Source of the DNA: Escherichia phage vB_EcoM_LNA2
Sequence record: MZ311865.1
Direction: 5' to 3' (one strand)
Length of the DNA: 64,000 bases
The notes beneath the pieces were generated by a model that was given only the letters and a program-made list of their open reading frames with translations, searched no databases and had not been told where the DNA came from. This document shows positions 1,853 through 61,171 of the stretch, piece by piece. A program made the position numbers and the translations under genes. Positions within the stretch are counted from its first letter, which is position 1, and every line of letters begins with the position of its first letter.

Positions 1853-4800
1853 ATGGCCGACATCAAACGTAAGTTCAGAGCCGAAGACGGTCTGGACGCC
1901 GGTGGCGACAAGATTGTTAACGTAGCATTAGCCGACCGTACAGTAGGTACTGATGGCGTAAACGTTGACTTCCTGGTACAAGAAAACACCGTTCAAGTAT
2001 ATGATTCTACGCGTGGATATAACAAAGGATTTGTTGTTCTTTATGACAACCGTTTATATCAAGCAATAAATGATATCGTGTCTCCTTCCGGGGCATTTAA
2101 CCTTTTACAATGGCGTGCAGTTCGTACCGATGCACAATGGATAACTGTAGCTTCTGGGTCTTATCAACTTTCTTCAGGTGAATCGATTTCGGTTAACACT
2201 GGTGCCGGCAATGATATGGTTTTCACGTTGCCAAATGCGCCGGTTGATGGTGACACTATTGTTTTGGCTGATATTGGTGGAAGAACCGGGGCAGTTAAAG
2301 TACAGATTAACGCGTCTGTGCAGAGTATTTTAAACTTTAGAGGCGAACAAGTTCGTACAGTTTTAATGACGCGTCCGCGTTCACAACTAGTGTTTGTGTT
2401 TAGTAATCGTTTGTGGCAGATGTATATTACCGATTATGGTAAAGAATCAATCACTGTTACACCTGCTACACCATATCAAGCGCAAGCAAACGATTTTATT
2501 GTTCTTCGTTTTACTAGTGCAGCACCAATCAACATTACACTTCCACGTAATGCTAACAATGGTGATATAATCAGCCTAGTTGATTTAGATAAATTAAACC
2601 CACTGTATCATACGATTATTAAAACATTTGATGATACAACGTCTATTGGCGAAGTCGGGACTCATATCGTCGAAGGTAGAACTTCTTCTGACGCGTTTTT
2701 TGTTTTTGATGCTGCAAATAGTTTATGGCGTATATGGGAAGGCGACCAGAAATCACGTCTTCGTATTATCCGTACAGATTCAAATATTCGCCCAAATGAA
2801 GAAGTTCTTATTTTTGGTACAAATAACGCTACAGCAGAAACTATTAACCTTACGCTTCCTACAGGAATTTTGACCGGTGACACTGTTAAAATTTCAATGA
2901 ACTACATGCGTAAAGGCCAAACAGTAAAAATTAAAGCTGCCGAAGGTGATACAATTGCTTCTTCTGTTGCATTACTTCAGTTCCCTAAACGTTCTGAATA
3001 TCCACCTGATGCTCAATGGGTCTCTGTTACTGAACTAGAATTCAATGGCACTACTTCATATGTTCCTGTATTAGAATTAGCGTATATCGAAGACACCGAT
3101 TCTGACACTCATTATTGGGTTGTGCAACAGAATGTCCCTACGGTAGAACGTGTTGATGCTGGAACTGATGCTACACGAGCTCGTTTAGGTGTTATTGCTC
3201 TTGCTACTCAAGCGCAAGCAAATGTTGATTTAGAGAATACTCCAGCTAAAGAAGTGGCTATTACTCCTGAAACTTTGGCAAATCGTACAGCAACTGAAGC
3301 TCGACGTGGTATCGCTAAAATTGCTACAACAGCACAAGTTAACCAGAATTCCACAGCATCATTTGTGGACGATACTATTGTTACGCCTAAAAAACTAAAT
3401 GAGCGTACAGCAACTGAAACTCGTCGTGGTCTTGCTGAAATTGCTACTCAGGCTGAAACCGATGCTGGTCTTGATGACACAACGATTATTACACCTAAGA
3501 AATTGCAGGCACGTCAGGGCTCTGAAACACTATCTGGTATAGTTAAATATGTATCAACTACTTCTGCTACACCTGCCGCGACTCGTGGAGCTGCAGGCAC
3601 TAATGTTTATAATAAAGACACAACCACGTTAACTATTTCTCCTAAAGCCCTTGACCAATATAAAGCAACTTATGCTCAACAAGGTGCAGTAATTTTAGCT
3701 GTTGATAGTGAAGTAATTGCTGGTCAATCACAAGCAGGTTATTCTCACGCTGTAGTAACTCCTGAAACACTACATAAGAAAACTTCTACTGATGGACGTA
3801 TTGGTTTAATTGAAATTGCTACGCAAGCAGAAACTAATGCTGGGACTGATTATACACGTGCAGTAACGCCTAAGACGTTAAATGATAGGAAAGCTACGGA
3901 AGGATTATCCGGCATAGCCGAACTTGCTACGCAAGTTGAATTTGATACTGGAACTGATGATACTCGTATCTCGACTCCACTGAAAATTAAAACTCATTTT
4001 GATTCTTCTGACCGTACCAGTGTTAATTCTGATTCCGGACTTATTGAAGAAGGAACCTTGTGGAACCATTATACTCTTGATATTTCTAAAGCAAATGAAA
4101 CACAACGTGGTACACTTCGCGTAGCGACCCAGGCAGAATCTAATGCAGGAACTTTAGATGATGTTCTTATTACTCCTAAAAAGCTTTTAGGGACTAAGTC
4201 CACTGAAACGTCTGAAGGCGTAATTAAGGTTGCTACTCAGGCTGAAACTGTAACAGGAACTTCTGCTAATACTGCTGTATCTCCTAAGAATTTAAAATGG
4301 ATTGTCCAGTCTGAACCAACATGGGCTGCTACTACGGCGATTCGTGGATTCGTTAAAACTTCATCCGGTTCTATTACATTCGTTGGTAATGATACAGTTG
4401 GTTCAACACAACCTTTAGAATCATATGAAAAAAATAGCTATGCTATATCTCCATATGAATTAAACCGTGTACTTGCTAACTATTTGCCATTGAAAGCTAA
4501 AGCAGTAGATAGTAATTTATTAGATGGTCTAGATTCATCTCAGTTCATTCGTAGGGATATTGCACAGACGGTTAATGGTTCACTAACCTTAACCCAACAA
4601 ACGAATCTGAGTGCCCCTCTTGTATCATCTAGTACTGCTACGTTTGGTGGTTCAGTTTCGGCAAATAGTACATTGACTATTTCTAACACTGGAACGACTT
4701 CTTCTCGATTTACATTTGAGAAAGGTCCTGCTTCTGGTAGTAATGCTGATTCTGCATTGTATGTTCGTGTATGGGGTAATAAGTACAGCGGCGGTTCTGA

Positions 4801-14072: not shown

Positions 14073-14705
14073 TCACAGTACATTAGTTACAAGGGTAATG
14101 ATTTCTTTGGACACATTAGGGAAGTCAATGTAAGTATATTTACCACCGATCTTAATCTTAACATCATTTTCAAGAGAAGTAAACAGCTTTGATTCAGTTT
14201 CTGACATGTTGTATGCAAAGATTCTAAGAGCGCCATCTCGACGAATTTCAATTTGGCGAATGCCTAGAACTCGTTTAGCGAATCGAACTTCTAAGTTACT
14301 ACGGTTTTCACCAATTTCTTTAACTTCAACTTTATCTTTAATATTTTCAAAAACAAAGTTTGCTAATTCATGCATTTCAGGAGTAACTCCACGTGCTTTT
14401 CTAGTGTTACGTTTCTGAAGAAGTTCTGGAGCATTTTCTTTGGCAAAGAGGTCTGCAGCTTTTTGGATAATATCCATTGCTTCGCCTGTTGCTACAAGTC
14501 CATCACCGGATTTTTCGACTAAACCTTTCTTAATCAATACACCAATGTTAGAGTTAACAACTGATGCATTGTATTCCGCTTCCAGAGCTTCACGGACATT
14601 GGCAGCAGTGGTGAAGTTGTTCTTAATGATATAAACCATTATTGCAGCAGTTTTTTCATTCAGAGCGTTTTCAGAAGCTTTGATGATGTAAGTAACTTTA
14701 GACAT
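14073..14705 (-). CDS. motA: middle transcription activator MotA
   Basis: 210 aa; MSKVTYIIKAS...NIGVLIKKGLVEKSGDGL... matches recalled T4 MotA; position between asiA and gene 52. Confidence 0.9.
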   Translation of the reverse strand: MSKVTYIIKASENALNEKTAAIMVYIIKNNFTTAANVREALEAEYNASVVNSNIGVLIKKGLVEKSGDGLVATGEAMDIIQKAADLFAKENAPELLQKRNTRKARGVTPEMHELANFVFENIKDKVEVKEIGENRSNLEVRFAKRVLGIRQIEIRRDGALRIFAYNMSETESKLFTSLENDVKIKIGGKYTYIDFPNVSKEIITLVTNVL

Positions 14706-18185: not shown

Positions 18186-18743
18186 TTAAAGATGAAGATA
18201 CCACCCGTTGTAGTTGCTCTTGCGGACGATTTTCTTTAGGTCTTCATGGTCTCCCACGAACTTTATAGAATAAGAGAAGACGTCAGGTGAGGTTTCTTTG
18301 ACATCTAATATAATAATGCAATCTGCGACTCGATGGTTCAAGAAGGGCCCTATATTGATTCCATTACCACCCGGATAATCACCACTGTATCCTGTGGTAA
18401 CTGAAATCCATTTAGAATCTATCTGGTGTGTCTTGACTTCTACACGAATTCCACAATACTTGGGATGGGCTAACACGTCCCACGCATACGTGTACGGGTC
18501 TTCTACGTCTTCAATACCTTTATTAACATATCCGTCTAGCCAATTTGCTACCACATACTCTGCAAAGACCGCAACCTTACAACGTCGAACTACATCTTCT
18601 TTGTTTTGGTCAGGATTTTGGCTCAGGGAATACCGAGCAGTGTCAGCAATCTTCACCTTCATTTCACTAGTCAAAAACTCATTCGACAGGATAAATGTCG
18701 GAAGATTCTTCAGTCTCAACAGTCCCAAGTTCGTCTTTACCAT
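18186..18743 (-). CDS. denB: DenB-like endonuclease IV candidate (185 aa from internal start)
   Basis: Track ORF 18186..18806; position between ndd and rIIB as T4 denB; start at ATG 18741-18743 gives T4-like length; sequence identity not verified. Confidence 0.4.
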   Translation of the reverse strand: MVKTNLGLLRLKNLPTFILSNEFLTSEMKVKIADTARYSLSQNPDQNKEDVVRRCKVAVFAEYVVANWLDGYVNKGIEDVEDPYTYAWDVLAHPKYCGIRVEVKTHQIDSKWISVTTGYSGDYPGGNGINIGPFLNHRVADCIIILDVKETSPDVFSYSIKFVGDHEDLKKIVRKSNYNGWYLHL

Positions 18744-19007: not shown

Positions 19008-19955
19008 TTATTCTGCAAATAATTCAGTAACGTCTGAAATTACTTCATAACGACAAGTACGCATCTTAGCATCGCCATAGTCAACTGGGATAGATACAAC
19101 ATCACGTGGATGAACTTTAACCTTCACAACTTTATCTGAGCTTGAACCAAAGTGGCGAATATAAGATTTAGCACAAACGTGGAGACCGCGAGAACAGGTT
19201 TGAGTATCATCGTCGTTAACTCGAGTACGAGGCATTGAAACAACTTTACCTGGGGAGTTATCAAACGTACCACTATAGCAGTCTAAATAGTCCTTACGAA
19301 CTACTTTCCACGCATAGAAATGACCATCTTCAGTGATTTCAATATCGTTTGCAACCAAGAAGTCGAATAAACGTTGTACAGCTTTTTCGCTTGGGTTTTC
19401 TAACAGGTTTTCAAGGAATGGCAGATAGAATTTAAAGTCTTCACCTTTTTCCATGGAATCAATAATACGGTTAACCAGCCCTGAACGAATCTCTATACCT
19501 TGATAAAATAAACTACCACCTTCAATAACAACATTACCGTCAACAAACTTACTAATAGCTTTCTTGATGTTAATAAGTTCGACAGCTTTACTAAGGTTTC
19601 CTGCGACCAAATTAGCTTTAATTTCTTCAAAATTTGCATGACTTGATGGAGTCGCATTGTATGCTACGCGTCCTTCAATAATTGAAATAAATTTAGATGA
19701 CGCGTTCCATATGATTTCAGGACGATGTCCGCCGATAATAGGTTCATCATTTTCTGGAACTTCTTCGATTACATAAGAGGCATCGTTTGCTTCAGGGACA
19801 ACGCCTTCTGCTTTAAAATTCTTAACAATCTTACGAAGAGTATCTGTTGAAATGTCGAAGTAATCGGCAATTTCTTTACGAGTCCATTTGCCTGATTCAA
19901 CCAGGCCATAAGCTTCTAACTGTTCTTCTTGGGACAAGCATTTGATATTGTACAT
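19008..19955 (-). CDS. rIIB: rapid-lysis/lysis-inhibition protein rIIB
   Basis: 315 aa; MYNIKCLSQEEQ... and C-terminal FYAWKVVR...TQTCSRGLHVC.KSYIRHFGSS match recalled T4 rIIB. Confidence 0.9.
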   Translation of the reverse strand: MYNIKCLSQEEQLEAYGLVESGKWTRKEIADYFDISTDTLRKIVKNFKAEGVVPEANDASYVIEEVPENDEPIIGGHRPEIIWNASSKFISIIEGRVAYNATPSSHANFEEIKANLVAGNLSKAVELINIKKAISKFVDGNVVIEGGSLFYQGIEIRSGLVNRIIDSMEKGEDFKFYLPFLENLLENPSEKAVQRLFDFLVANDIEITEDGHFYAWKVVRKDYLDCYSGTFDNSPGKVVSMPRTRVNDDDTQTCSRGLHVCAKSYIRHFGSSSDKVVKVKVHPRDVVSIPVDYGDAKMRTCRYEVISDVTELFAE

Positions 19956-22483: not shown

Positions 22484-23584
22484 TTACGCTGTGAAGATTT
22501 TATCCCACATCGCAACAACTGCATCTCGATTATACTTCTTCCATACTGCTTCAGCACGTTTAACTCGAGCTTCGTATGTGTCAGTGAATTCTAATACAGC
22601 TTTTGTGTAAAGCGCAACTACTTCTTTCTTAGGAGTAGAGGAATCAATTTCTACACGCACAGTATCTGGGTCGTATTCGAATGTCGCATGAGGATAATCC
22701 TTAAAAACTAACTGGATTACAGGGACACCTTTAGAGATGGCTTCAATAGAACTATTCTCTACCGTACCTGTGTCAGGACACGTATTAATAAGTGCTTTAG
22801 CTGTTTTAAGACGTTCCATAATTTCACTGTGTGGAGCATCAATAATAACAGGATATTTAGCCGGTGGCGCCCATTTACTAGGACAGTATCCTACACCATT
22901 TTCGCCTAGTGCTTTAATCGCTTCAAGAGCAACATCAGTACGACGCATTTTAGTGTCATAACGTTGTGCACTAATAATCAGATCCGTCGCCGGAAGAACT
23001 TCTGGCTTTTCAGTCAAACAAATAACCGGATAATCTTCGGCTTCAAACAACGGATTTGCTCGCCAATAATCATAATCAATTTTGTCAGTCAGACCTGAAG
23101 TCATATAACAATATTTGCGTTCAAATTCACGGAAGGCTTTAGTAGGAGCATAGCTCTTCCCACCATTCTTATGAATTTGAATAGTCTGGTCCCAAATTTG
23201 AACAATGCCACGAGATACTGGTTCAAATGGTGTTGCCATAAAATTCTTATGAACTTTAGAGAGACCTGCGTCTTTAATTGCCTGAACGGTTAGTTTAGTC
23301 GGTTCCATAGTAACAACAAAATCGTATTCATGGATGCCGGCTAGTTCAACAATCTTACGAGCCATAGTATAACTCATACCTAGACTGAATTTTGTCAGAT
23401 GACCAACAGGATGATGATTAACTTTCCAATCACCAAATGTGTCATTATCAAAACCGATATAATCAATATCAGCACCGATGGACACAAGATATTTCAACAC
23501 GTTCAAATGAACCGCTTCAAGACCACCTTGTACACGTTCTGGGTTAAATGGGACTGCACGAGATGGGATAAACATAACTTTCAT
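22484..23584 (-). CDS. GT-B fold glycosyltransferase, candidate hmC-DNA (arabinosyl)transferase
   Basis: 366 aa; C-terminal GTVENSSIEAISKGVPVI resembles GT-B donor-binding motif; occupies T4 gene 60/mobA slot between rIIA.1 and 39. Confidence 0.6.
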   Translation of the reverse strand: MKVMFIPSRAVPFNPERVQGGLEAVHLNVLKYLVSIGADIDYIGFDNDTFGDWKVNHHPVGHLTKFSLGMSYTMARKIVELAGIHEYDFVVTMEPTKLTVQAIKDAGLSKVHKNFMATPFEPVSRGIVQIWDQTIQIHKNGGKSYAPTKAFREFERKYCYMTSGLTDKIDYDYWRANPLFEAEDYPVICLTEKPEVLPATDLIISAQRYDTKMRRTDVALEAIKALGENGVGYCPSKWAPPAKYPVIIDAPHSEIMERLKTAKALINTCPDTGTVENSSIEAISKGVPVIQLVFKDYPHATFEYDPDTVRVEIDSSTPKKEVVALYTKAVLEFTDTYEARVKRAEAVWKKYNRDAVVAMWDKIFTA

Positions 23585-25444: not shown

Positions 25445-25485
25445 GTTGTCTCCTCGTTATGAAGGTATTCTATCATCCGAAATCT

Positions 25486-25507
25486 AAAGCAAAAAGGGCC
25501 GAAGCCC
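25486..25507 (-). terminator. short UUCG hairpin + U-run
   Basis: Plus GGGC-CGAA-GCCC preceded by AAAAA; minus strand hairpin then TTTTT. Confidence 0.4.
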
Positions 25508-43680: not shown

Positions 43681-44229
43681 TTAACGAGCCCATTTGATAA
43701 TTTCTGTAATCAAATTATTACGTTCGCTTGCATTAAATCCTATAACTTTGTTAGCACCATCATGATTAAGTAATTGATACGTTTGGATTTCGTTATGAAT
43801 TGCAAACTCTTCAAAATATGAAATGACTGTATTAAAACCAAATGAAGACAAAGTAATAAGGTCGTCTTCAAAACTTTCAGTCATTTCGTTACGTGTTAAA
43901 ATAATTGTGAACACATCATGGTTTTGGCAAAGACGAACATAGTCCTGTTCATAAACGTCAAGAACCGAGTCCGCATCTTGTCGAATACGTCCGTAAACCC
44001 AGTTACTAATATATCCACGGTCTAATAGATAAATCTTAGTAGGGTCTAAATAATTCAACATCGTTTCGAAACAGCCAACTTCATTTCGAGACTTAACATC
44101 GAAACGTCCATCAACTGTTCGTTTAGGGAAATCAATCTTTACATATCTTTCACTAATTTCCATTATGTCATTAATGAAAGTTGTTTTACCAGCATTATCT
44201 GGGCCATCTACTAAAATAATTTTAGCCAT
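43681..44229 (-). CDS. P-loop NTPase / small kinase-like protein
   Basis: 182 aa; Walker A LVDGPDNAGKTT at N-terminus; occupies T4 uvsX-beta-gt interval. Confidence 0.5.
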   Translation of the reverse strand: MAKIILVDGPDNAGKTTFINDIMEISERYVKIDFPKRTVDGRFDVKSRNEVGCFETMLNYLDPTKIYLLDRGYISNWVYGRIRQDADSVLDVYEQDYVRLCQNHDVFTIILTRNEMTESFEDDLITLSSFGFNTVISYFEEFAIHNEIQTYQLLNHDGANKVIGFNASERNNLITEIIKWAR

Positions 44230-44230
44230 T

Positions 44231-45130
44231 TTATTCCTCGATTACGACATCTTCATATTTAGGTATATTATACGGTGAAGAAATTAAAGCGTTAAAGTAG
44301 ATGAACTCACCAAGACCTGGATGGAATACTTCTTCAGGATTTTCGAAATATTGAATTTTCGGACGTCCTTTAAGAATTTGATAGTACTCAGTTTTAGTTG
44401 GTTTAAAAATTCGAATCAACGCTTCTTCAGGATACTTATTTCTGTCGAAGCTATTATTTGGATCGGTTATATAAAGCGGTTGACCTAATTGAATTGCGCA
44501 TTCAACAACTTGTTCAAAACGATAGCATGGGTCACTAATTCGAAATGGATGAAAAATACCATCTAGATGAATAGGAGCCAAATCACCTACAAGACGCTGC
44601 ATGATGGAAGGACGTATAACTTTCTGCGTTACGATAATCTTATTACCATCTGCACCAGCGTTAACCAGCACTTCTTTTTGACGTTCATTCAACACAGTAG
44701 TTTGAAGTGAACGATTAACCGACAACATATCGGTTTTTAAGAATTCGTCAATATAAAAACGTGGTTTATTAGGGTCTGCAGTGATATTGAAATTGAATTC
44801 CGCATCAAAAGCGCCGTCATATCCAGTGATATCTGTGATTAGAAAATCACAGTCATAATAAGCAATTAATGAATCAACCACAAATTCATTTTCAGACCAG
44901 AAATATTTACGAGTGTTATACGCGTTATCTTTATACCATAATGGAACAAACTTAAATTCTGGAAAAAGACGTTCGCATTCTTTAATATCAGATGCATTAC
45001 GTGGATATGTAATCACATCACCCGGATTAGCACGGTGCAAATGAAGTTGGAAGTTGCCATCCTTAAGGATAGCATACTGTCCAGTTTCATAAGACCGCAT
45101 ACTCAAGATAGGTACGCGGAAAATAGCCAT
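44231..45130 (-). CDS. hypothetical protein in beta-glucosyltransferase slot
   Basis: 299 aa between uvsX and gene 42 where T4 has beta-gt; no resemblance to recalled T4 beta-gt. Confidence 0.5.
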   Translation of the reverse strand: MAIFRVPILSMRSYETGQYAILKDGNFQLHLHRANPGDVITYPRNASDIKECERLFPEFKFVPLWYKDNAYNTRKYFWSENEFVVDSLIAYYDCDFLITDITGYDGAFDAEFNFNITADPNKPRFYIDEFLKTDMLSVNRSLQTTVLNERQKEVLVNAGADGNKIIVTQKVIRPSIMQRLVGDLAPIHLDGIFHPFRISDPCYRFEQVVECAIQLGQPLYITDPNNSFDRNKYPEEALIRIFKPTKTEYYQILKGRPKIQYFENPEEVFHPGLGEFIYFNALISSPYNIPKYEDVVIEE

Positions 45131-45846
45131 TAGTCAAGGAATCCTTTAACATAATCAAAATCACGTTCAAACACATGGGCACTTACCATGGTATGAGTAT
45201 AATCACCAACTTCTACACCACATTCTTTAGCGATATAATGAAGTAATTTTCCTTGGAGATAAAAATCCAACTGCATAACAACAGCACAGTTCTGAGAACG
45301 CATATGACAGTGGGTATAAAGCTTACCATCACGAATATAATAAGTCACTGAGTCAGTACATGGATATTCAAGTGTTTCGTCCGAATCAAGCAAAGCCTGA
45401 TCAGAACTTTCTAGAATTTGGAACACAACTCTTCGAGAGTTAGGCTTCTCTTTAAGTTCTTTTAGAAGAGCTGGTAATTGGGCCGCAATGCGAGGACCAT
45501 AGAAAGTGTTGAAGTTCGCCGGCAAAACATCTGATTTTGGTTTAGAAATAAATTTAGCGACATTAGGATATGCCTTAAACGCTTCTTCTGCGTTGGTACC
45601 ACCAGAAATCATAAACTTCCAGAAGTCTTCGGCATATTCATAAGAGATGCGGTTAATACGTGGGTCGGTCATTTTGAATGATGATGGAGTGTCAACAACT
45701 ACTGTCATAGACCCAATTTCATTACAACGTCCAATACGAGAATCAGTTACGAATTCCGGGTTTTCTAAAATTTCACGATTGACAGCTTTAAATGCGGATT
45801 GAAAATCTGCGGCTTTAATATATTTCATTGTGTTATGTTTTCCCAT
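45130..45846 (-). CDS. 42: dCMP hydroxymethylase gp42 (thymidylate-synthase fold)
   Basis: 238 aa; YPCTDSVTYYIRDGKLYTHCHMRSQN resembles TS/dCH catalytic-Cys region; conserved position. Confidence 0.75.
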   Translation of the reverse strand: MGKHNTMKYIKAADFQSAFKAVNREILENPEFVTDSRIGRCNEIGSMTVVVDTPSSFKMTDPRINRISYEYAEDFWKFMISGGTNAEEAFKAYPNVAKFISKPKSDVLPANFNTFYGPRIAAQLPALLKELKEKPNSRRVVFQILESSDQALLDSDETLEYPCTDSVTYYIRDGKLYTHCHMRSQNCAVVMQLDFYLQGKLLHYIAKECGVEVGDYTHTMVSAHVFERDFDYVKGFLD

Positions 45847-45978: not shown

Positions 45979-46128
45979 TTACAGTTGAACAGGTTCTTTA
46001 ATCACTTTAGCCGCTTTAGTTTCAAACAGGCCCATCAGGGCCTTTTTAAGAATTTGTTCGTTAGTGTTCAGTTTCGTAGTCAAAATCTCTTCATTAAGTT
46101 GGTGGTTAAAAGTTTTTCTAGAAATCAT
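45979..46128 (-). CDS. small protein (49 aa) coupled to Cys-rich enzyme gene
   Basis: Hand-translated MISRKTFNHQLNEEILTTKLNTNEQILKKALMGLFETKAAKVIKEPVQL; ATGA overlap with upstream gene. Confidence 0.3.
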   Translation of the reverse strand: MISRKTFNHQLNEEILTTKLNTNEQILKKALMGLFETKAAKVIKEPVQL

Positions 46129-47285
46129 TCCGGGTACCTCAAAGCGTCATCAGAGTTAGTTATATCAATAATAGATATAGAGTTTTCTGATAACCCATTT
46201 TTAGATAACTGACGTTTATAATATCTTTCACAATATGTACACGTTGACCCACAGATTTCATTAGCACAATCGAAATCTGGATGTCTGAACCACCTTTTTT
46301 CTAAAAAGCCATCTAACAAAGAGGTTTCAATATTTACTGTATGTGAAAACTCAGTTTCGTTTTCAAGAGTGAAAATAGTCTCTAAAGGCTTCCACAGTTC
46401 TAACAAATTACCTTCAAACTTTTCAGAAGCGTATGCTTCAAGAACTTTCAAAATGTAGTCTGTGCTACCTGTACGTCCTGAAACTTTGAATTGAGTGATA
46501 CCAATATCATTATAAAGTTTCAAATCTTGAGGACGAACAAAACGAGTTCTCAACCAGTTAAATGGGTCTGTATCACGAGCTTTAATACAGTGCTGCATAG
46601 GATATCCGTTTAAGGATTTAGCATCATCAGCTGTAACATCAGTACTATGGAAAATATAGCAAGAGTCACGATAGCTACAATGTGTTGTATACCCTTTACC
46701 AGCATTAGAACAGAACTCATTTACAAGAACTTCAAATATTATATTGTTCTTATTACAAAACTCTGCTGCACGCTTCAGGAAAGAAACTGAACGGTTCTTA
46801 TGAATTCCACAGCAGACCTTTTTGATATTATATTGGTCGTGCAAGTATTTGATTTGAGTTACAGCATCGACATGTAGAATTGTTGAAACTTCAATCTCAA
46901 TGTCTTTATTGACTTCACGAACAATTTCCATAACAACAGGGTTAGCGATAGTAATACGCCATACGCCTATTGACCAAAGATACTGAACATAATCCTGAAT
47001 AGCTTTCTTCTTCCACTCAACTAGTTCTCTTTTTGAACCAGGATTTATCGTGTTGAGTGTATAGTTAAAGCAAATACCTAATTCGTTACAACGTTTAACG
47101 TAATCTTCTAACATCTTTTTGTCAACGTCAGGAAGCCTAAAATCAGGTCTGGCTGCTACAAAAGCCATTTCTCTTGTAGAGCCGTATACTTCGTTTATCA
47201 AGCTATTAGGATAAGTTTTATTGAGCTCTACGATTTTATCAAGAAGAGCTAAATCAAAATTCGTTCCGATTTTAAAAGTATTCAT
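46125..47285 (-). CDS. Cys-rich enzyme of unknown function (possible Fe-S/metal enzyme) in sugar cassette
   Basis: 386 aa; Cys clusters VCCGIHK, EFCSNAGKGYTTHCSYRDSC, C-terminal DCANEICGSTCTYC (CX3CX2C). Confidence 0.5.
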   Translation of the reverse strand: MNTFKIGTNFDLALLDKIVELNKTYPNSLINEVYGSTREMAFVAARPDFRLPDVDKKMLEDYVKRCNELGICFNYTLNTINPGSKRELVEWKKKAIQDYVQYLWSIGVWRITIANPVVMEIVREVNKDIEIEVSTILHVDAVTQIKYLHDQYNIKKVCCGIHKNRSVSFLKRAAEFCNKNNIIFEVLVNEFCSNAGKGYTTHCSYRDSCYIFHSTDVTADDAKSLNGYPMQHCIKARDTDPFNWLRTRFVRPQDLKLYNDIGITQFKVSGRTGSTDYILKVLEAYASEKFEGNLLELWKPLETIFTLENETEFSHTVNIETSLLDGFLEKRWFRHPDFDCANEICGSTCTYCERYYKRQLSKNGLSENSISIIDITNSDDALRYPE

Positions 47286-47343
47286 TTTTTTGCATCTCGC
47301 GTTAATTGATGCGATGGTTTTTTTGCAGGTCTTACTTAAATTA

Positions 47344-47745
47344 TTATAGATTCGGTTTATACGATTTAAATGTTTCGAATTCGCCTTTATTCATAAGAGC
47401 TTTGAATTCGTCAGGACGCATAGCTTTGTCGTCGATAATCCAATCATATACTGGTTTATGTGTTAGCAAATTATGGTACTTCAAGCCAATGTTTGCCAAG
47501 TTCTGAATCAGACTTGGGAGAATGTCAATTGCTATACGACCAGGACCTACTGACTTCATACCGCGAGCAGTGTAAAGCGTTATGGTATGCCCTGCATCAT
47601 ACAGAGCATTAATGGCAGACACCATTTCGGTGTCTGGTTTGAAGTTCACGTAATCACGATTGTTATTCCATTCCGTGATGCAATCATCGACATCAAAACA
47701 AAGATTAAGCATGTTTTCTACACGGTGCATTAGATTCGTTCCCAT
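47344..47745 (-). CDS. HAD-superfamily phosphatase (KdsC-like)
   Basis: 133 aa; motif I FDVDDCIT, motif II ITLYTARG, motif IV WIIDDK. Confidence 0.6.
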   Translation of the reverse strand: MGTNLMHRVENMLNLCFDVDDCITEWNNNRDYVNFKPDTEMVSAINALYDAGHTITLYTARGMKSVGPGRIAIDILPSLIQNLANIGLKYHNLLTHKPVYDWIIDDKAMRPDEFKALMNKGEFETFKSYKPNL

Positions 47746-49415
47746 TGATGAGTGATATCGCCACCGATTGGACGATAGGAAACACCAGTTTCTTTATCAG
47801 TTAGTACCCATTTACCAGGATTTTTTGTAATCAGAGTAGCCGTTACAGGTTCTGCTACGTCATAACTAATAGAGCCGTCTTGAAGTACACGGCCCATATT
47901 ACGTAATTGCTTAGTCAGAAGTTCCATACCTTTATAATATGCGGCTACCGCTTTAAGTGGATTATTCTTGAAATAACCACCTAATGCAATCCAGATAATT
48001 GCTACAGCCAAATGATGATACTCGTTAAACGAACTCATCTTTCCATATTTGTAAACTAGTGGATTGATGTTAATAGTCACATTACAAGTTGTTTCGTCAA
48101 TAGTAAACTGTCCCCAGGTCGGATTAGCGTTGAATTCATCATAACCTGAAACAGCATAAAGCACTTTAGCTTCATCGTACAATTTTGGCCCGTAAATCTT
48201 GGTTTCACCAAAATATCCACGAGGGTCGATAAACTTGACTTCGCCGTTATCAGTAATCATAGTATTACTGAAGTTCGGGTCGCCGTGAATAACAGAGTAC
48301 TGTCCCTGAGAACGGTTATGATAACGAATAAGGTGTTCTAAAGCTTGTTTCAGCATTGGCTTCAGACGTCCAATCTTAGTGTAGTTCACATGTGTGATTT
48401 TACCAAATGAATCAATCAATGGTTGAATGCTTTCACAACGATCAATAACTTTCGTATAGAATTCTTTAGTGAAATCACGACGAACAGTTTCAGGACTTAC
48501 AAAATAAGTGTCTGTGCTGAATTTCAGTGCATCTAAAATTGCACCAACAATTTGTGGACGAGCAAGACTTGATTTGGATTTAATATATTCAAATGCCGGC
48601 TTACCTTTAATGCGTTCCATTTCAAAGTTATTTTCATTAACAGAAACTAACTGAGGGACTGAATCTGATTTCACTTTAAGATACCATGAAATCTCATCTT
48701 TCTGAAGAGCTCGACCCTGTTCGGTTAATGCGAATTTAGTTACAGTTTCTTCACCAATTTCAACTGCATTAAAACTACGATTAAGTTCACGAACTTCATG
48801 AGCTTTTTCAAGTTTAGGCATATCACCTAAATCAATTAGATTCATAAGCTCTGATTTATTGAATGTGCTGCCGTAAAGGAATTCTACGAAATCACGTCCT
48901 TTGCAGTATTCATGAATTTCCTCATCAGTAGAACCCATATAGAATTCCCAGTCTTTGAACTGATAAATTCCTACAACATTACCACCTGTTGAACCTACGT
49001 TAGTGATATTTTCACCGTCGAAATTATATCGACATTCGTCACCCTTAACATAGATTGCGTTAACATTCCAAGACCATGAACCAAAATCGGGAATAATATC
49101 ACACCAGTTAACAATTACGTTATGGCCGTCTAAATCTTTGTGTAATTTAGCAAGAGCATAAGCAGAACCATACGCTTCATCAACTGTACGAATAGTCACA
49201 TTGAACTCTTCTTGCTCACAATAAGCTCGAACAGTTTCAGCAAATTTTGAATGAACTACTACAATAATTTCATCTGCGCCAAGGTCAGAATAAATTGTAT
49301 ACAAATTGCTCAGAATAGTGTCTTGTTTATAGTTAACAAGCACCTTAGGAATATGATGCGTTATTGGATACAAACGAGTTGCTAATCCAGCACCAAGAAT
49401 AACAGCTTTTTTCAT
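47730..49415 (-). CDS. bifunctional sugar-1-phosphate nucleotidyltransferase / anomeric sugar kinase
   Basis: 561 aa; N-term KAVILGAGLATRLYPIT (RmlA/GalU-type); C-term VIHGDPNFSNTMI...FIDPRG (APH/choline-kinase-like catalytic loop). Confidence 0.65.
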   Translation of the reverse strand: MKKAVILGAGLATRLYPITHHIPKVLVNYKQDTILSNLYTIYSDLGADEIIVVVHSKFAETVRAYCEQEEFNVTIRTVDEAYGSAYALAKLHKDLDGHNVIVNWCDIIPDFGSWSWNVNAIYVKGDECRYNFDGENITNVGSTGGNVVGIYQFKDWEFYMGSTDEEIHEYCKGRDFVEFLYGSTFNKSELMNLIDLGDMPKLEKAHEVRELNRSFNAVEIGEETVTKFALTEQGRALQKDEISWYLKVKSDSVPQLVSVNENNFEMERIKGKPAFEYIKSKSSLARPQIVGAILDALKFSTDTYFVSPETVRRDFTKEFYTKVIDRCESIQPLIDSFGKITHVNYTKIGRLKPMLKQALEHLIRYHNRSQGQYSVIHGDPNFSNTMITDNGEVKFIDPRGYFGETKIYGPKLYDEAKVLYAVSGYDEFNANPTWGQFTIDETTCNVTININPLVYKYGKMSSFNEYHHLAVAIIWIALGGYFKNNPLKAVAAYYKGMELLTKQLRNMGRVLQDGSISYDVAEPVTATLITKNPGKWVLTDKETGVSYRPIGGDITHQWERI

Positions 49416-49456
49416 GTTGTGGTCCTCATTGGTAAGTAGGTGTATTGTACACTATT

Positions 49457-49600
49457 CTAGTTAAAGCATTCATACTTTGCTTGTAGTCCAATCATAATCC
49501 ATCCAATTACAAGTGTTGGAATCATTACTGGAGCCGTTAAGCTCCAGTAGATAGTCATGGCAAGCATCAATAGTAAAAGTCCTATTGTTATTGCTTTCAT
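49457..49600 (-). CDS. small membrane protein (47 aa) inside sugar cassette
   Basis: Hand-translated MKAITIGLLLLMLAMTIYWSLTAPVMIPTLVIGWIMIGLQAKYECFN; start overlaps SIS gene stop. Confidence 0.3.
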   Translation of the reverse strand: MKAITIGLLLLMLAMTIYWSLTAPVMIPTLVIGWIMIGLQAKYECFN

Positions 49601-50232
49601 TGTTCGCCTCGTAACATGGCACCTAGTGCACCGCCTGGATGGAACTTAAGGAAGTCATTAGAGGTAAATCCACGTTCAGACGAAAGGTTGATAGCAAACG
49701 TATCGATAAGCGCTAACAACAATGTAGTGGACATAGTCGGAGCCAGAGAATTCTCATCAACCTCTACCGCGATGCCTGTACAGAAAGAGTAATCAAAAAG
49801 GGCTTCATTTTCTTGTGGAATGTCTGGGTTACAATGCAACAGAATCTGTTTGACGTTCGGTCGAATCATTTTAAGATGCTTAGCCACGCCTATCATTTCT
49901 TCAGTTTTACCAGAACGACTAATATGAATCAACACATCATTAGGCGCAATGAATCCTGCATCACCGTGAGAATAATGCCCAGTGTTCAAGTACATACTCG
50001 GGATACCGAGTGAAGCAAATGTCTCAGAAGCTTTAGTTGCAATATTAGCATTCTTACCAACACCTGTAATAATTACTCGGCTTTCATAATTACTAAGTCC
50101 CGGGCGTCGAAGAGTTTCTAGAATAGCATTATAACGAGCAGGGTTTTGACTAATTACTTTGGCCATAGCGGCCAAAGAAGAAGCTTGTTTTATGATTGCG
50201 TCAATAGCGATAGTAATAGGAGTAGTTTTCAT
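49597..50232 (-). CDS. SIS-domain sugar-phosphate isomerase (KdsD/GutQ-like arabinose-5-phosphate isomerase, no CBS domains)
   Basis: 211 aa; VIITGVGKNANIATKASETFASLG...LIHISRSGKTEE resembles SIS domain of API. Confidence 0.65.
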   Translation of the reverse strand: MKTTPITIAIDAIIKQASSLAAMAKVISQNPARYNAILETLRRPGLSNYESRVIITGVGKNANIATKASETFASLGIPSMYLNTGHYSHGDAGFIAPNDVLIHISRSGKTEEMIGVAKHLKMIRPNVKQILLHCNPDIPQENEALFDYSFCTGIAVEVDENSLAPTMSTTLLLALIDTFAINLSSERGFTSNDFLKFHPGGALGAMLRGEQ

Positions 50233-58380: not shown

Positions 58381-58609
58381 TACACGCTTCAGCCATTTTA
58401 AGAATAGATCCAGGAGTATCGTTGTCCATTATATTAAAGCTAAATTCAATAGCCCAGTCGGTGCAGACATGAACTGCTTTAACTTCATTGCCTTCAACGC
58501 GTAATGGCTCAATCCAATACTTGATAGTGTTCTCGAATCCATCATCATCTTTAACGTCCATTTCAACTTCAAGCCCGAGCCCAGCATTATTAAATTCATC
58601 TAAAGTCAT
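58352..58609 (-). CDS. hypothetical protein (46.2 position)
   Basis: 85-aa acidic ORF. Confidence 0.45.
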   Translation of the reverse strand: MTLDEFNNAGLGLEVEMDVKDDDGFENTIKYWIEPLRVEGNEVKAVHVCTDWAIEFSFNIMDNDTPGSILKMAEACIEDAYNDED

Positions 58610-59625
58610 TGTGTTGCCTCAATATAAAGTTCGTTGGAATATTTGACCAGCGCTTCTCTGTCTTCGTCTGAGATATCTGGAATCGCGTCAATATATTCTT
58701 TAATGATATCTTGAAGTGATTTAATCTCGATTTCCTGGTCGTCATCAGATTCAACACTGTTATCAACTTTAGAAACCATACGAAGAGAGTGAACTACTTT
58801 TTCAAGTTCAGATTCAAACTTAGTCAACTCTGAATCAATTTCTGATACTATAACACGTACGGCTAGATTAGTATAATCAGAATAATTGATTTTGCCTTTA
58901 AACGGATAAGTGATTCGTCTATGCCATGTTGTTTCATTAGGAATAAATTCCATACGTTCAACATCAGTGTCAAATACCCAGAATCCGCGCGGGTCATTCT
59001 CATCACCTGCAGTAAGGGTCCATGGTGTCCCAATATATTTGACGTTAGCAGCTTCAGAGATTGTGTGGAAGTGGCCAGACCAGACTTGTTTATAGGTCTT
59101 TAAGAAATCAGGTTCAAGCCCATGAGACTTCATTCCTTTATAGAAATAAAAGCCGTTCAGTTCCCAGTGACCAACACAATACGCAGCAGAAGAAGTCTTG
59201 ATGTGCTCTAAGATTTCACCTGTATTTTCTTCACACATCCATGGAACGATATCAATCAGACATCCGTCAAAATCTACAGTAGTTGGATGCTCGTAAATAG
59301 TAAAGTTTTCAAATTGAGTCAACAATTCAGAAACAGTGTTAGGTGTTATTGTATTCTTAAACGCCATGTCATGGTTTCCTATCGTGACATGAACGTGAAT
59401 GCCTGCTTTAGAAATCATATCAACGATTTCACGATTGAATTCCATTGTACGATGTGTTATTGCTTTACGGACGTCAAACCAATCACCGTACTGAATCCAA
59501 GTTTTAATCCCGTGTTTCTTAGAGTATTCAATTGCTTGTCGAATACCATCACGTTGAATATCTTGAACCCATGGGTCGTCTTGTTTGACTCCGATATGGA
59601 AGTCGCCTAAGTGCAAAATTTTCAT
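58606..59625 (-). CDS. 47: recombination endonuclease subunit gp47 (Mre11/SbcD-like)
   Basis: 339 aa; phosphoesterase motifs LHLGDFH, GDWFD, GNHD, GHWE/GHFH. Confidence 0.9.
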   Translation of the reverse strand: MKILHLGDFHIGVKQDDPWVQDIQRDGIRQAIEYSKKHGIKTWIQYGDWFDVRKAITHRTMEFNREIVDMISKAGIHVHVTIGNHDMAFKNTITPNTVSELLTQFENFTIYEHPTTVDFDGCLIDIVPWMCEENTGEILEHIKTSSAAYCVGHWELNGFYFYKGMKSHGLEPDFLKTYKQVWSGHFHTISEAANVKYIGTPWTLTAGDENDPRGFWVFDTDVERMEFIPNETTWHRRITYPFKGKINYSDYTNLAVRVIVSEIDSELTKFESELEKVVHSLRMVSKVDNSVESDDDQEIEIKSLQDIIKEYIDAIPDISDEDREALVKYSNELYIEATQ

Positions 59626-59670
59626 ATTATTTCCTCATTAGTTAATTCATTTTATCATCCGTTTATAAAG

Positions 59671-59697
59671 CAAAAAAAGGAACTCCGAAGAGTTCCT
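59671..59697 (-). terminator. intrinsic terminator (UUCG hairpin + U-run) upstream of gene 47
   Basis: Plus A7 then AGGAACTC-CGAA-GAGTTCCT; minus strand hairpin then TTTTTTTG. Confidence 0.5.
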
Positions 59698-59869
59698 ATC
59701 CACATAGTACACCGTACAGAGGCTCATTTGAACTTTTAAATCGAATGGGCTTGTACGTAATAGTTCCTTCGGCTTTAGCTTTATCATAAGACTCTTTAAA
59801 ACGTCTCATTCTTTCTGCTTTGCCTTTACGGATTTTATCAAAATTTTCAGAAGTCAGGATGTTCGTCAT
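59696..59869 (-). CDS. small basic protein (57 aa)
   Basis: Hand-translated MTNILTSENFDKIRKGKAERMRRFKESYDKAKAEGTITYKPIRFKSSNEPLYGVLCG; not in ORF track. Confidence 0.3.
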   Translation of the reverse strand: MTNILTSENFDKIRKGKAERMRRFKESYDKAKAEGTITYKPIRFKSSNEPLYGVLCG

Positions 59870-59908
59870 GCATAAGCACCTCTCAGAAAATGCCTAAACC
59901 GATTTCTC

Positions 59909-60130
59909 TCATCGTTTCCACCATTTCTTAACTTGAAATGAATCGACCCACACGAGTTGTTTTGGGTCTGCCTTTACAATAGGCGGACAAATTTCTGTAA
60001 TAGAACCGTCGTGATATTCCTTTTCAGAAATTTTAACACAAAGAGGACCTCCCAATTTAAGGGTGAACCCTGCGTTCAGCTTCAGACGTTTAAACTTTGT
60101 TTGAACTAGCGCCATTAATGATGTCCTCAA
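59909..60130 (-). CDS. hypothetical protein (start uncertain)
   Basis: 73-aa ORF overlapping next ORF by 40 nt. Confidence 0.3.
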   Translation of the reverse strand: MRTSLMALVQTKFKRLKLNAGFTLKLGGPLCVKISEKEYHDGSITEICPPIVKADPKQLVWVDSFQVKKWWKR

Positions 60131-60413
60131 TAGCCTGACGAGTAGTAACCCACTGGATTTTAATTAACTTGTCATTATACGGTTGTCGTAGAATATCCCG
60201 AGATTTCTTAATAGCATATTCGTAAGCTTCGAAGTTGTTTTGAATTGCTGCTTCTTGAGCATGAGCATAAAGACGGTTTAGTTCAAAACGATTCTTTTTA
60301 AGAATCTTTTCGGATTTTTTACGTGCTTCAGCTTCATTTTTCTTTTGGATTTCTTGTAGCATTTTAGCTACTGCATCTTCTGCTTCTTTATTTTCAATAA
60401 TCTCGGTAGTCAT
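60090..60413 (-). CDS. hypothetical protein
   Basis: 107-aa ORF, Lys/Glu-rich. Confidence 0.45.
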   Translation of the reverse strand: MTTEIIENKEAEDAVAKMLQEIQKKNEAEARKKSEKILKKNRFELNRLYAHAQEAAIQNNFEAYEYAIKKSRDILRQPYNDKLIKIQWVTTRQAIEDIINGASSNKV

Positions 60414-60414
60414 A

Positions 60415-60624
60415 TTATCTCATTAAATTAAAATAAAAACGTCCATCCTCTTCAATACAGAACTCATATTCAACTGGAGTCCCGTTTATCGAAAATGACA
60501 CGTCATGTGGGTTCAAAGGGTCGATGTCAAAATTAATTTTAAATTCACGACCCAACAGTTTTACCAAATAAGGGATTGCTTCGTCAAAAGGTTCTTCTAA
60601 GTAGTTAGAGATGTCAATTGTCAT
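60415..60624 (-). CDS. hypothetical protein
   Basis: Track ORF 60415..60708; internal ATG 60622-60624 reduces overlap with gene 55. Confidence 0.4.
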
Positions 60625-61171
60625 CCTCATATAAAAAATCCAAACTAGGCGAATCGCTAACAACTTCCTTCTTTTCAGCCCCAGGAGCTTTATAAGCGGA
60701 TTCTTCATAATGCGTCATTTTATCGTAGATGTCTTGAATAAACGTTTCATCTACCAACGCTACCATATCATCGTCATGACTGTCGTAGACATTATGAACG
60801 AAGTAACTATATTTCTTTGCAACTTCCTTACGTTCTTTTTTGATACGTTGGACAAAAGCATTAAAACAAGCTCGAGTTATGTATGCATGTGGGTTATTGT
60901 ACTTAGTTTCGTCGAAATTATGAAGTCCCTTAATAGAGGCTTCAATCCCATCTGCAATCATCTCCTGCTTCCAAGACTGGGTATATCCTGAAAAGTTGAA
61001 ACGTTTGGACAGGCCTTCGGCGATAAGCATAATTGCTAAACCGATGGTATCATTCTGACGAATAATTTTGTTTGGGTCTTTATTATTTAAGAGCTCCTTT
61101 TTCCACTCGATTATAGCGGCGAGAAGCTCTTTATTATTCACATAGTTATTTTTAGGTTTTTGTTCAGTCAT
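60614..61171 (-). CDS. 55: late-promoter sigma factor gp55
   Basis: 185 aa; ...[77 protein letters not shown] near-identical to recalled T4 gp55. Confidence 0.9.

Follow-up and report, generated by a model that had tools for sequence, protein, structure and literature searches.

It was concluded that the 64,000-nucleotide stretch of Escherichia phage vB_EcoM_LNA2 analysed here (record MZ311865.1; hereafter the window) very probably belonged to an RB69-like Mosigvirus that had kept the a-gt.5 to a-gt.2 block of small genes, did not glucosylate its DNA and carried arabinosylated 5-hydroxycytosine of the RB69 type instead. The analysis itself covered the gene content, the orthology, the absence of glucosyltransferase homologs and the GT-B fold, and the chemistry was taken from the RB69 literature.

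The window was ~98% identical to phage RB69 over 25 kb, corresponding to ~2% nucleotide divergence, and on the basis of this identity it was assigned to an RB69-like T-even phage of the genus Mosigvirus. The lack of the alpha-glucosyltransferase gene (alpha-gt) between genes 47 and 55 was therefore attributed to the RB69-like nature of the phage. The interval at 59626-60613 was 99.2% identical to vB_EcoM_G53, JK45 and other Mosigvirus phages, and the same alpha-gt-free arrangement was present in at least 146 phage records. Four ORFs of this region were already labeled a-gt.2, a-gt.3, a-gt.4 and a-gt.5 in the RB69 record.

The interval comprised 988 bp, and its edges were exactly the start of gene 47 (ATG at 59625, minus strand), which formed the downstream boundary, and the stop of gene 55 (60614), which formed the upstream one. 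The longest ORF within the interval in all frames was 107 aa, and four small minus-strand ORFs occupied 89% of its length. The genes were as follows:

58606-59625, minus strand: gene 47, SbcD/Mre11-like subunit of the recombination nuclease (339 aa); identity of 76% to T4 gp47 and 100% to RB69 gp47; Pfam Metallophos.
59696-59869, minus strand: a-gt.2 ortholog, 57 aa; 75% identical to T4 a-gt.2 (E 1e-28) and 96% to RB69; Pfam DUF5486 (E 4.5e-28); phrog_2140.
59909-60115, minus strand: a-gt.3 ortholog, 68 aa; 71% identical to T4 a-gt.3 (E 4e-35) and 100% to RB69; phrog_1648.
60090-60413, minus strand: a-gt.4 ortholog, 107 aa; 58% identical to T4 a-gt.4 (E 3e-38); Pfam DUF2654 (E 1e-27).
60415-60630, minus strand: a-gt.5 ortholog, 71 aa; 46% identical to T4 a-gt.5 (E 6e-18) and 100% to RB69; Pfam DUF5491 (E 5.5e-13).
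60614-61171, minus strand: gene 55, late sigma factor; 91% identical to T4 gp55 and 99.5% to RB69 gp55.

The Pfam scores for DUF5486, DUF2654 and DUF5491 were 97, 97 and 50 bits against the curated cut-offs of 27, 25 and 27, respectively, and no Pfam family was matched by the a-gt.3 ortholog. All four small proteins matched PHROG families of unknown function (E 1e-24 to 7e-37) and were 96-100% identical to their RB69 counterparts. The order.5,.4,.3,.2 after gene 55 was the same in T4, RB69, SH7 and Mineola. On this similarity and order, the four ORFs were identified as orthologs of T4 a-gt.2 to a-gt.5 rather than anonymous filler. Consequently, the slot that was empty in the strict sense was reduced to the 70-bp spacer at 59626-59695 alone. 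The original prediction, which placed only short hypothetical ORFs of 57-107 aa and a hairpin in the interval, was thus accurate, except that the ORFs have named orthologs in T4.

The a-gt.3 gene and the 3' end of a-gt.4 share 26 nt, and the start of a-gt.5 shares 17 nt with the end of gene 55. The a-gt.3 product would be 73 aa long if an upstream TTG were taken as the start, and in the mechanical ORF list a-gt.5 ran to 97 aa, into gene 55. By tBLASTn, a-gt.4 was detected in 1442 phage records spread over the Straboviridae, and an early listing already counted it among the conserved ORFs with no assigned function (PMC1524935). The AlphaFold model of a-gt.4 was all-helical (pLDDT 74), and the fold search with it gave no significant match, the best being generic helical hairpins such as PspA/Vipp1 (E ~0.6). 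In the literature on a-gt.2 to a-gt.5, DUF2654 and DUF5486, no function was found and only genome-description papers were retrieved. An Rfam search of the interval returned nothing credible. Taken by itself, the interval contained nothing unusual.

Glucosyltransferases were searched for by tBLASTn with T4 alpha-gt, T4 beta-gt and the alpha-gt and beta-alpha-gt of SH7 (T2-like) as the queries; the targets were the window and two complete genomes, RB69 and vB_EcoM_G53, each pieced together from its separate loci. This was the check proposed for the original prediction, extended to two complete genomes. No homolog of alpha-gt, beta-gt or beta-alpha-gt was detected in any of the three targets. The best match of alpha-gt had an E value of 0.11 and was a 69-aa chance match inside gene e.5, and neither beta-gt nor beta-alpha-gt gave a tBLASTn match at E <= 1 in any of the three targets, so the missing beta-gt was confirmed as predicted. 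In the positive controls, T4 was recovered at 100% and SH7 alpha-gt at 91%. The T4 genes 47.1 and mobB likewise had no counterpart in the window, complete RB69 or complete G53, and the 70-bp spacer contained neither an alpha-gt gene nor an alpha-gt remnant. BlastP analysis of RB69 was also reported to yield no glucosyltransferase homologs (PMC6024577). Because homologs of all three glucosyltransferases were absent, the phage almost certainly does not glucosylate its DNA, judging from its gene content.

Further, a different set of sugar-related genes was found elsewhere in the window. Seven minus-strand proteins encoded in the region between uvsX and gene 43 were 98-100% identical to RB69 gp45 to gp55, and a further glycosyltransferase gene adjoined rIIA. 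These genes, with the NDP-arabinose supply block at 46125-50232 (minus strand), were as follows:

22484-23584, minus strand: second GT-B (GT4-like) glycosyltransferase, 366 aa, counterpart of RB69 ORF003c/gp3 (98.9% identical to ORF003c), proposed second arabinosyltransferase.
43681-44229, minus strand: thymidylate-kinase-like nucleotide kinase, counterpart of RB69 gp45 (98.9% identical), annotated as thymidylate kinase in the RB69 record.
44231-45130, minus strand: GT-B fold glycosyltransferase, 299 aa, intact counterpart of RB69 gp46:47 (98-100% identical to the two RB69 fragments), proposed first arabinosyltransferase.
45130-45846, minus strand: thymidylate-synthase homolog in the gene-42 position, counterpart of RB69 gp48 (98.3% identical); Pfam Thymidylat_synt.
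46125-47285, minus strand: U32-like protein, counterpart of RB69 gp50; Pfam Peptidase_U32.
47344-47745, minus strand: HAD-like phosphatase, counterpart of RB69 gp51.
47730-49415, minus strand: nucleotidyltransferase-kinase fusion, intact, 561 aa, counterpart of RB69 gp53:52; Pfam NTP_transferase and weak kinase-family matches.
49597-50232, minus strand: SIS-domain arabinose-5-phosphate isomerase, counterpart of RB69 gp55; Pfam SIS.

The counterparts of gp50, gp51, gp53:52 and gp55 were 98.5-100% identical to RB69, and their roles in NDP-arabinose supply are proposals (PMC6024577, PMC13326640). Hence, the genes that mark the RB69 type, namely a gp48-type homolog, two GT-B candidates and the NDP-arabinose supply genes, were all present.

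The 299-aa protein adjoins the ThyA homolog, in the position held by beta-gt in T4. It was modeled by AlphaFold with a pLDDT of 94.4, and the top Foldseek matches were GT-B enzymes such as MshA (3c4q, E 8e-7), the same PDB match that has been reported for RB69 gp46:47 (PMC13326640). Its profile showed no similarity to T4 beta-gt, T4 alpha-gt or SH7 beta-alpha-gt (hhalign probability <=0.2% for beta-gt and beta-alpha-gt), and the gp46:47 family profile gave only chance matches against PDB sequences, the GT-B fold being visible only by fold search. Along its full length, the 366-aa protein was nearly identical to PDB 9IQZ/9IR0 (E 6e-249), an entry described as "phage HY126 glycosyltransferase with UDP"; 9IQZ was not mentioned in the literature searched. 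An ORF003c-family profile built from only 6 sequences gave no signal against T4 alpha-gt, which is a weak test, since much larger HMMs were needed by Thomas et al. 2018. The GT-B fold was thus predicted for the protein at 44231-45130 and solved in a close homolog of the protein at 22484-23584. A glucosyltransferase homolog elsewhere in the genome, which had been named in advance as evidence against the original prediction, was therefore absent at the sequence level, but at the level of fold and function putative DNA glycosyltransferases were encoded elsewhere.

[quoted passage not shown] 2018, PMC6024577). The RB69 base was later determined by MS and NMR as mono- or di-arabinosylated 5-hydroxycytosine, not hydroxymethylcytosine (Lee et al. 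2026, PMC13326640). In the same work, RB69 gp48 was shown experimentally to make 5-hydroxy-dCMP with O2 and a flavin-like cofactor; the roles of gp46:47 and gp3 as the first and the second arabinosyltransferase, respectively, are only proposed, and the acceptor of the first arabinosylation, a mononucleotide or DNA, was left open (PMC13326640). Functional work on the Aat arabinosyltransferase of phage Bas46 is ascribed to Mahler et al. 2025 in a paper citing it (PMC13216743).

As the enzymes are 98-100% identical to those of RB69, the same pathway was proposed for this phage, and by analogy the chemistry of its DNA would be that of RB69. The distant thymidylate-synthase homolog in the gene-42 position would make 5-hydroxy-dCMP. 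The isomerase, phosphatase and kinase-nucleotidyltransferase encoded between uvsX and gene 43 would supply NDP-arabinose, and the GT-B enzymes at 44231-45130 and 22484-23584 would add one or two arabinoses to 5-hydroxycytosine. In the interval under study, the a-gt.5 to a-gt.2 block is followed by a module of a stem-loop and a Mot box, leading straight into gene 47, with mobB, alpha-gt and 47.1 absent.

Two other readings of the DNA modification were weighed against arabinosylated 5-hydroxycytosine. The two GT-B enzymes might be divergent glucosyltransferases of a non-T4 type, by which the phage would still glucosylate its DNA. Two points speak for such enzymes: T4 alpha-gt and beta-gt likewise have the GT-B fold, and UDP, with which the HY126 homolog was crystallised, is also a carrier for glucose. 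We nevertheless gave this reading very little credence. Glucosylation would have no use for the arabinose-5-phosphate isomerase and the sugar kinase-nucleotidyltransferase that the phage encodes, given that UDP-glucose is supplied by the host, and in RB69 the DNA hydrolysates contained arabinose rather than glucose (PMC6024577) and arabinosyl-5-hydroxycytosine was found by NMR and MS (PMC13326640).

According to the original prediction, this was a hydroxymethylcytosine (hmC) phage without glucosylation, i.e., one that would make hmC by a T4-like gene 42 and leave it unglycosylated after the loss of both glucosyltransferases. The undetectable alpha-gt, beta-gt and beta-alpha-gt homologs and the presence of a thymidylate-synthase-family gene in the gene-42 position fit such a phage. 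Bare hmC was still considered highly improbable, as the window carries intact genes for two GT-B glycosyltransferases and for the whole NDP-arabinose pathway. Moreover, the gene-42 counterpart was only 24.8% identical to T4 gp42, while its neighbours 41, uvsX, 43, 62, 44, 45, 46, 47 and 55 were 62-91% identical to their T4 orthologs. This difference is consistent with a changed enzyme, and the label "hmC phage" is therefore probably wrong. Additionally, 5-hydroxy-dCMP is the product of the RB69 ortholog, to which it is 98% identical, and the arabinosylation of RB69 DNA is complete (PMC13326640). The statement that the phage does not glucosylate its DNA was right, but in the narrow sense only: it holds for glucose and does not extend to unglycosylated hmC, since the full RB69 arabinosylation set is present.

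The junction of a-gt.2 and gene 47 contained two elements, the first of which was obtained by a terminator scan:

59697-59678, minus strand: terminator-like hairpin GGAACUC-UUCG-GAGUUCC with a UUCG tetraloop.
59649-59672, minus strand: Mot-box middle-promoter-like site upstream of gene 47, consisting of TGCTTTA (59672-59666), 11 nt and TAAAAT (59654-59649).

The hairpin overlaps the stop codon of a-gt.2 and is followed by seven T (U in RNA) at 59678-59672. Its folding energy was -13.8 kcal/mol (z = -2.3 against shuffles), and the same hairpin is annotated as a terminator in the vB_EcoM_G53 record. Next after TAAAAT come a GAGG ribosome-binding site and the ATG of gene 47. The pattern TGCTTNA-N11-13-TANNNT was counted 12 times in the window, where 4.1 ± 2.0 would be expected, and this number was reached in none of the 100 shuffles; a MotA homolog is encoded at 14073-14705 (phrog_1345, E 1e-89). 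From these consensus matches, the hairpin and the Mot box were taken as a candidate attenuator plus middle promoter for gene 47. The RB69 spacer was the same as that of the window except for one T in the T-run. The module after a-gt.2 could be aligned as orthologous in the window, T4, SH7 and Bp7, and a second, similar copy was present after alpha-gt in T4 and SH7.

It has been proposed that cassettes in T4-like genomes are shuffled via composites of a stem-loop and a promoter, termed PeSL and, with a Mot box, PmSL (PMC2839356, PMC4122927). The module described here has the structure of a PmSL, with a GC-rich stem-loop, a TGCTT Mot box and a correctly spaced -10 element. As in the known motifs, the stem-loop is directly followed by the promoter at a boundary of differing gene content between related phages; no description of a PmSL at the a-gt.2/47 locus was found in the motif literature (PMC2839356, PMC4122927). 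We proposed that the alpha-gt cassette may have been gained or lost via recombination between such modules.

The gene content from gene 55 to gene 47 was compared across genera:

T4 (Tequatrovirus):.5,.4,.3,.2, mobB, alpha-gt, 47.1.
SH7 (Tequatrovirus):.5,.4,.3,.2, alpha-gt, 47.1.
Mineola (Jiaodavirus, Klebsiella phage):.5,.4,.3,.2, alpha-gt.
RB69 and the window (Mosigvirus):.5,.4,.3,.2.
Bp7 (Dhakavirus):.5,.4,.3 and an unannotated.2.
CGG4-1 (Gelderlandvirus): small ORFs,.4 and an unannotated 47.1; no alpha-gt.
RB49 (Krischvirus):.5,.4, HNH endonuclease.
Miro (Slopekvirus):.5-sized ORF,.4.
Apostate (Lazarusvirus): small ORF,.4-like ORF.

The location of alpha-gt between genes 47 and 55 in T4, on which the original prediction relied, was borne out by this gene order. 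Homologs of alpha-gt were found in 657 phage records, nearly all of them Tequatrovirus (>=90% identity) or Klebsiella Jiaodavirus (~66%). An alpha-gt in this slot was not specific to Tequatrovirus, as Mineola (Jiaodavirus) has it there.

Two histories of the junction were considered. The junction without alpha-gt may be ancestral; in that case, cassette shuffling would have brought alpha-gt, together with the hairpin-promoter module downstream of it, into the lineages of Tequatrovirus and Jiaodavirus. Six of the eight sampled genera lack alpha-gt at the junction, including outgroups outside Tevenvirinae. The orthologous module after a-gt.2 in the window, Bp7, T4 and SH7, with the second copy after alpha-gt in the latter two, also agrees with an insertion, and the shuffling of modules at motifs of this kind has been documented (PMC2839356, PMC4122927). 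This history was judged to have somewhat better than even chances, although the presence of alpha-gt in both Tequatrovirus and Jiaodavirus would require two same-site insertions, lateral transfer or later losses. Alternatively, an ancestor of Mosigvirus may have had alpha-gt here, and the gene would have been deleted after arabinosylation had been acquired. Such a loss would account for alpha-gt lying in exactly the same slot in two genera of Tevenvirinae, Tequatrovirus (T4, SH7) and Jiaodavirus (Mineola), and the two similar hairpin and Mot-box modules around the T4/SH7 cassette could recombine and delete it. It was nonetheless regarded as plausible but rather less probable, given that Dhakavirus, Gelderlandvirus, Krischvirus, Slopekvirus and Lazarusvirus also lack alpha-gt at this place and that no alpha-gt remnant was left in the 70-bp spacer. 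We therefore lean slightly towards an insertion in the alpha-gt-bearing lineages over a loss in Mosigvirus.

It was also observed that the a-gt.5/a-gt.4 pair lies directly downstream of gene 55 in every sampled Straboviridae genus, and that in most genera a 17-nt overlap joins the stop of gene 55 to the gene that comes next, which suggests translational coupling. It is conceivable, though unlikely, that the pair is not dispensable but works together with the late-transcription machinery (gp55) or with the gp46/47 nuclease; in that case, an accessory module found almost universally in T4-like phages would be concealed by the name "a-gt.N".

The absence of alpha-gt and beta-gt and the arabinosylation of cytosine in RB69-like phages are already known, having been published in 2018 and refined in 2025-2026, and the feature therefore carries little weight as a discovery. 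For annotation, it indicates that a missing glucosyltransferase in a T-even-like genome is not proof of bare hmC DNA. Alternative sugar pathways should first be looked for between uvsX and gene 43 and beside rIIA, and hmC production should not be assumed from a thymidylate-synthase homolog in the gene-42 position.

Among known systems, RB69 has the same gene order from 47 through a-gt.2 to a-gt.5 and 55 as the window, with 98-100% identity between the arabinosylation proteins. In the RB69 reference record, gp46:47 and gp53:52 are both split, whereas the window has each of them as an intact ORF; the split is ascribed to sequencing errors (PMC6024577, PMC13326640). T4 has the same flanking genes, the same four small genes (46-75% identity) and the same hairpin and Mot-box module after a-gt.2. 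Since a-gt.2 to a-gt.5 lie between genes 47 and 55 in T4 as well, the difference from T4 within the interval is confined to the a-gt.2/47 junction, which spans 70 bp in the window and 2283 bp in T4, where it holds mobB, alpha-gt, the second hairpin-promoter module and 47.1. Between uvsX and gene 43, T4 carries segA, beta-gt, 42, imm and imm.1, whereas the window carries the arabinosylation set. T4 alpha-gt and beta-gt share the GT-B fold with the two glycosyltransferases of the window, but no sequence or profile similarity between them was detectable. T4 makes glucosyl-hmC, whereas the phage studied here lacks the alpha-gt and beta-gt of T4; according to the RB69 literature, the sugar and the acceptor would be arabinose on 5-hydroxycytosine, in contrast to glucose on hydroxymethylcytosine in T4 (PMC13326640).

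In the window and in phages T4, Bp7, RB49, Apostate and Mineola, the gene following gene 55 was found to start within gene 55, the two sharing exactly 17 nt. The overlapping gene was a-gt.5, except in Apostate, where a small unnamed ORF occupied this position. The overlaps were located as follows:

60614-60630, window
19601-19617, T4 (locus L002)
2715-2731, Bp7 (locus L012)
2670-2686, RB49 (locus L013)
2754-2770, Apostate (locus L015)
1391-1407, Mineola (locus L019)

Further downstream, a-gt.5 was separated from a-gt.4 by a single nucleotide. This arrangement suggests a conserved translational coupling to the late sigma factor gene.

Across the interval between genes 47 and 55, Shigella phage JK45 (L001, NC_054940.1) was 99.2% identical to the window and likewise carried no alpha-gt. 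This phage is assigned to Tequatrovirus in the RefSeq taxonomy line and to Mosigvirus in the current NCBI taxonomy. Two unannotated ORFs were also noticed near this junction in other phages: an a-gt.2 homolog inside a 300-bp gap of the Bp7 record (L012, about 3500-3690) and a 47.1-like ORF, overlapping the start of gene 47, in phage CGG4-1 (L016, about 4095-4240).

A pattern resembling Mot-box middle promoters was recorded at 12 sites in the window, approximately threefold over shuffled sequences. The predicted sites included the following:

59649-59672, minus strand, directly upstream of gene 47
49444-49468, minus strand, directly upstream of the nucleotidyltransferase-kinase gene of the arabinose cluster
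25467-25491, minus strand, directly upstream of gene 39

Upstream of gene 47, just past the -10 element, the 12-mer TAAAATGAATTA (59643-59654, minus strand) was observed, which exactly matched the T4 sequence across the mobB start codon (L002, around 18670-18690, minus strand). This match could be due to chance or could represent a remnant of a common ancestral spacer.

The gene-42 position is occupied by a thymidylate-synthase homolog (45130-45846, minus strand) that shared only 24.8% identity with T4 gp42; the surrounding replication genes were 62-91% identical to their T4 orthologs. Such a low gp42 identity fits the published switch in chemistry from dCMP hydroxymethylation to hydroxylation.

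In RB69, nrdG and nrdD, the genes for anaerobic ribonucleotide reductase, lie between 55.8 and gene 49 (L008, 2089-5731); both appear to be missing from vB_EcoM_G53 (L004, 43900-45330). This comparison covered G53 and RB69 outside the window, which stops at nrdH.

Two minus-strand ORFs, of 299 aa (44231-45130) and 561 aa (47730-49415), were unbroken in both the window and vB_EcoM_G53, whereas their counterparts in the RB69 reference record (L003, 9438-10338 and 12935-14621) were each broken into two ORFs. Since both were whole in these two phages, the published attribution of the RB69 splits to sequencing errors was independently supported.
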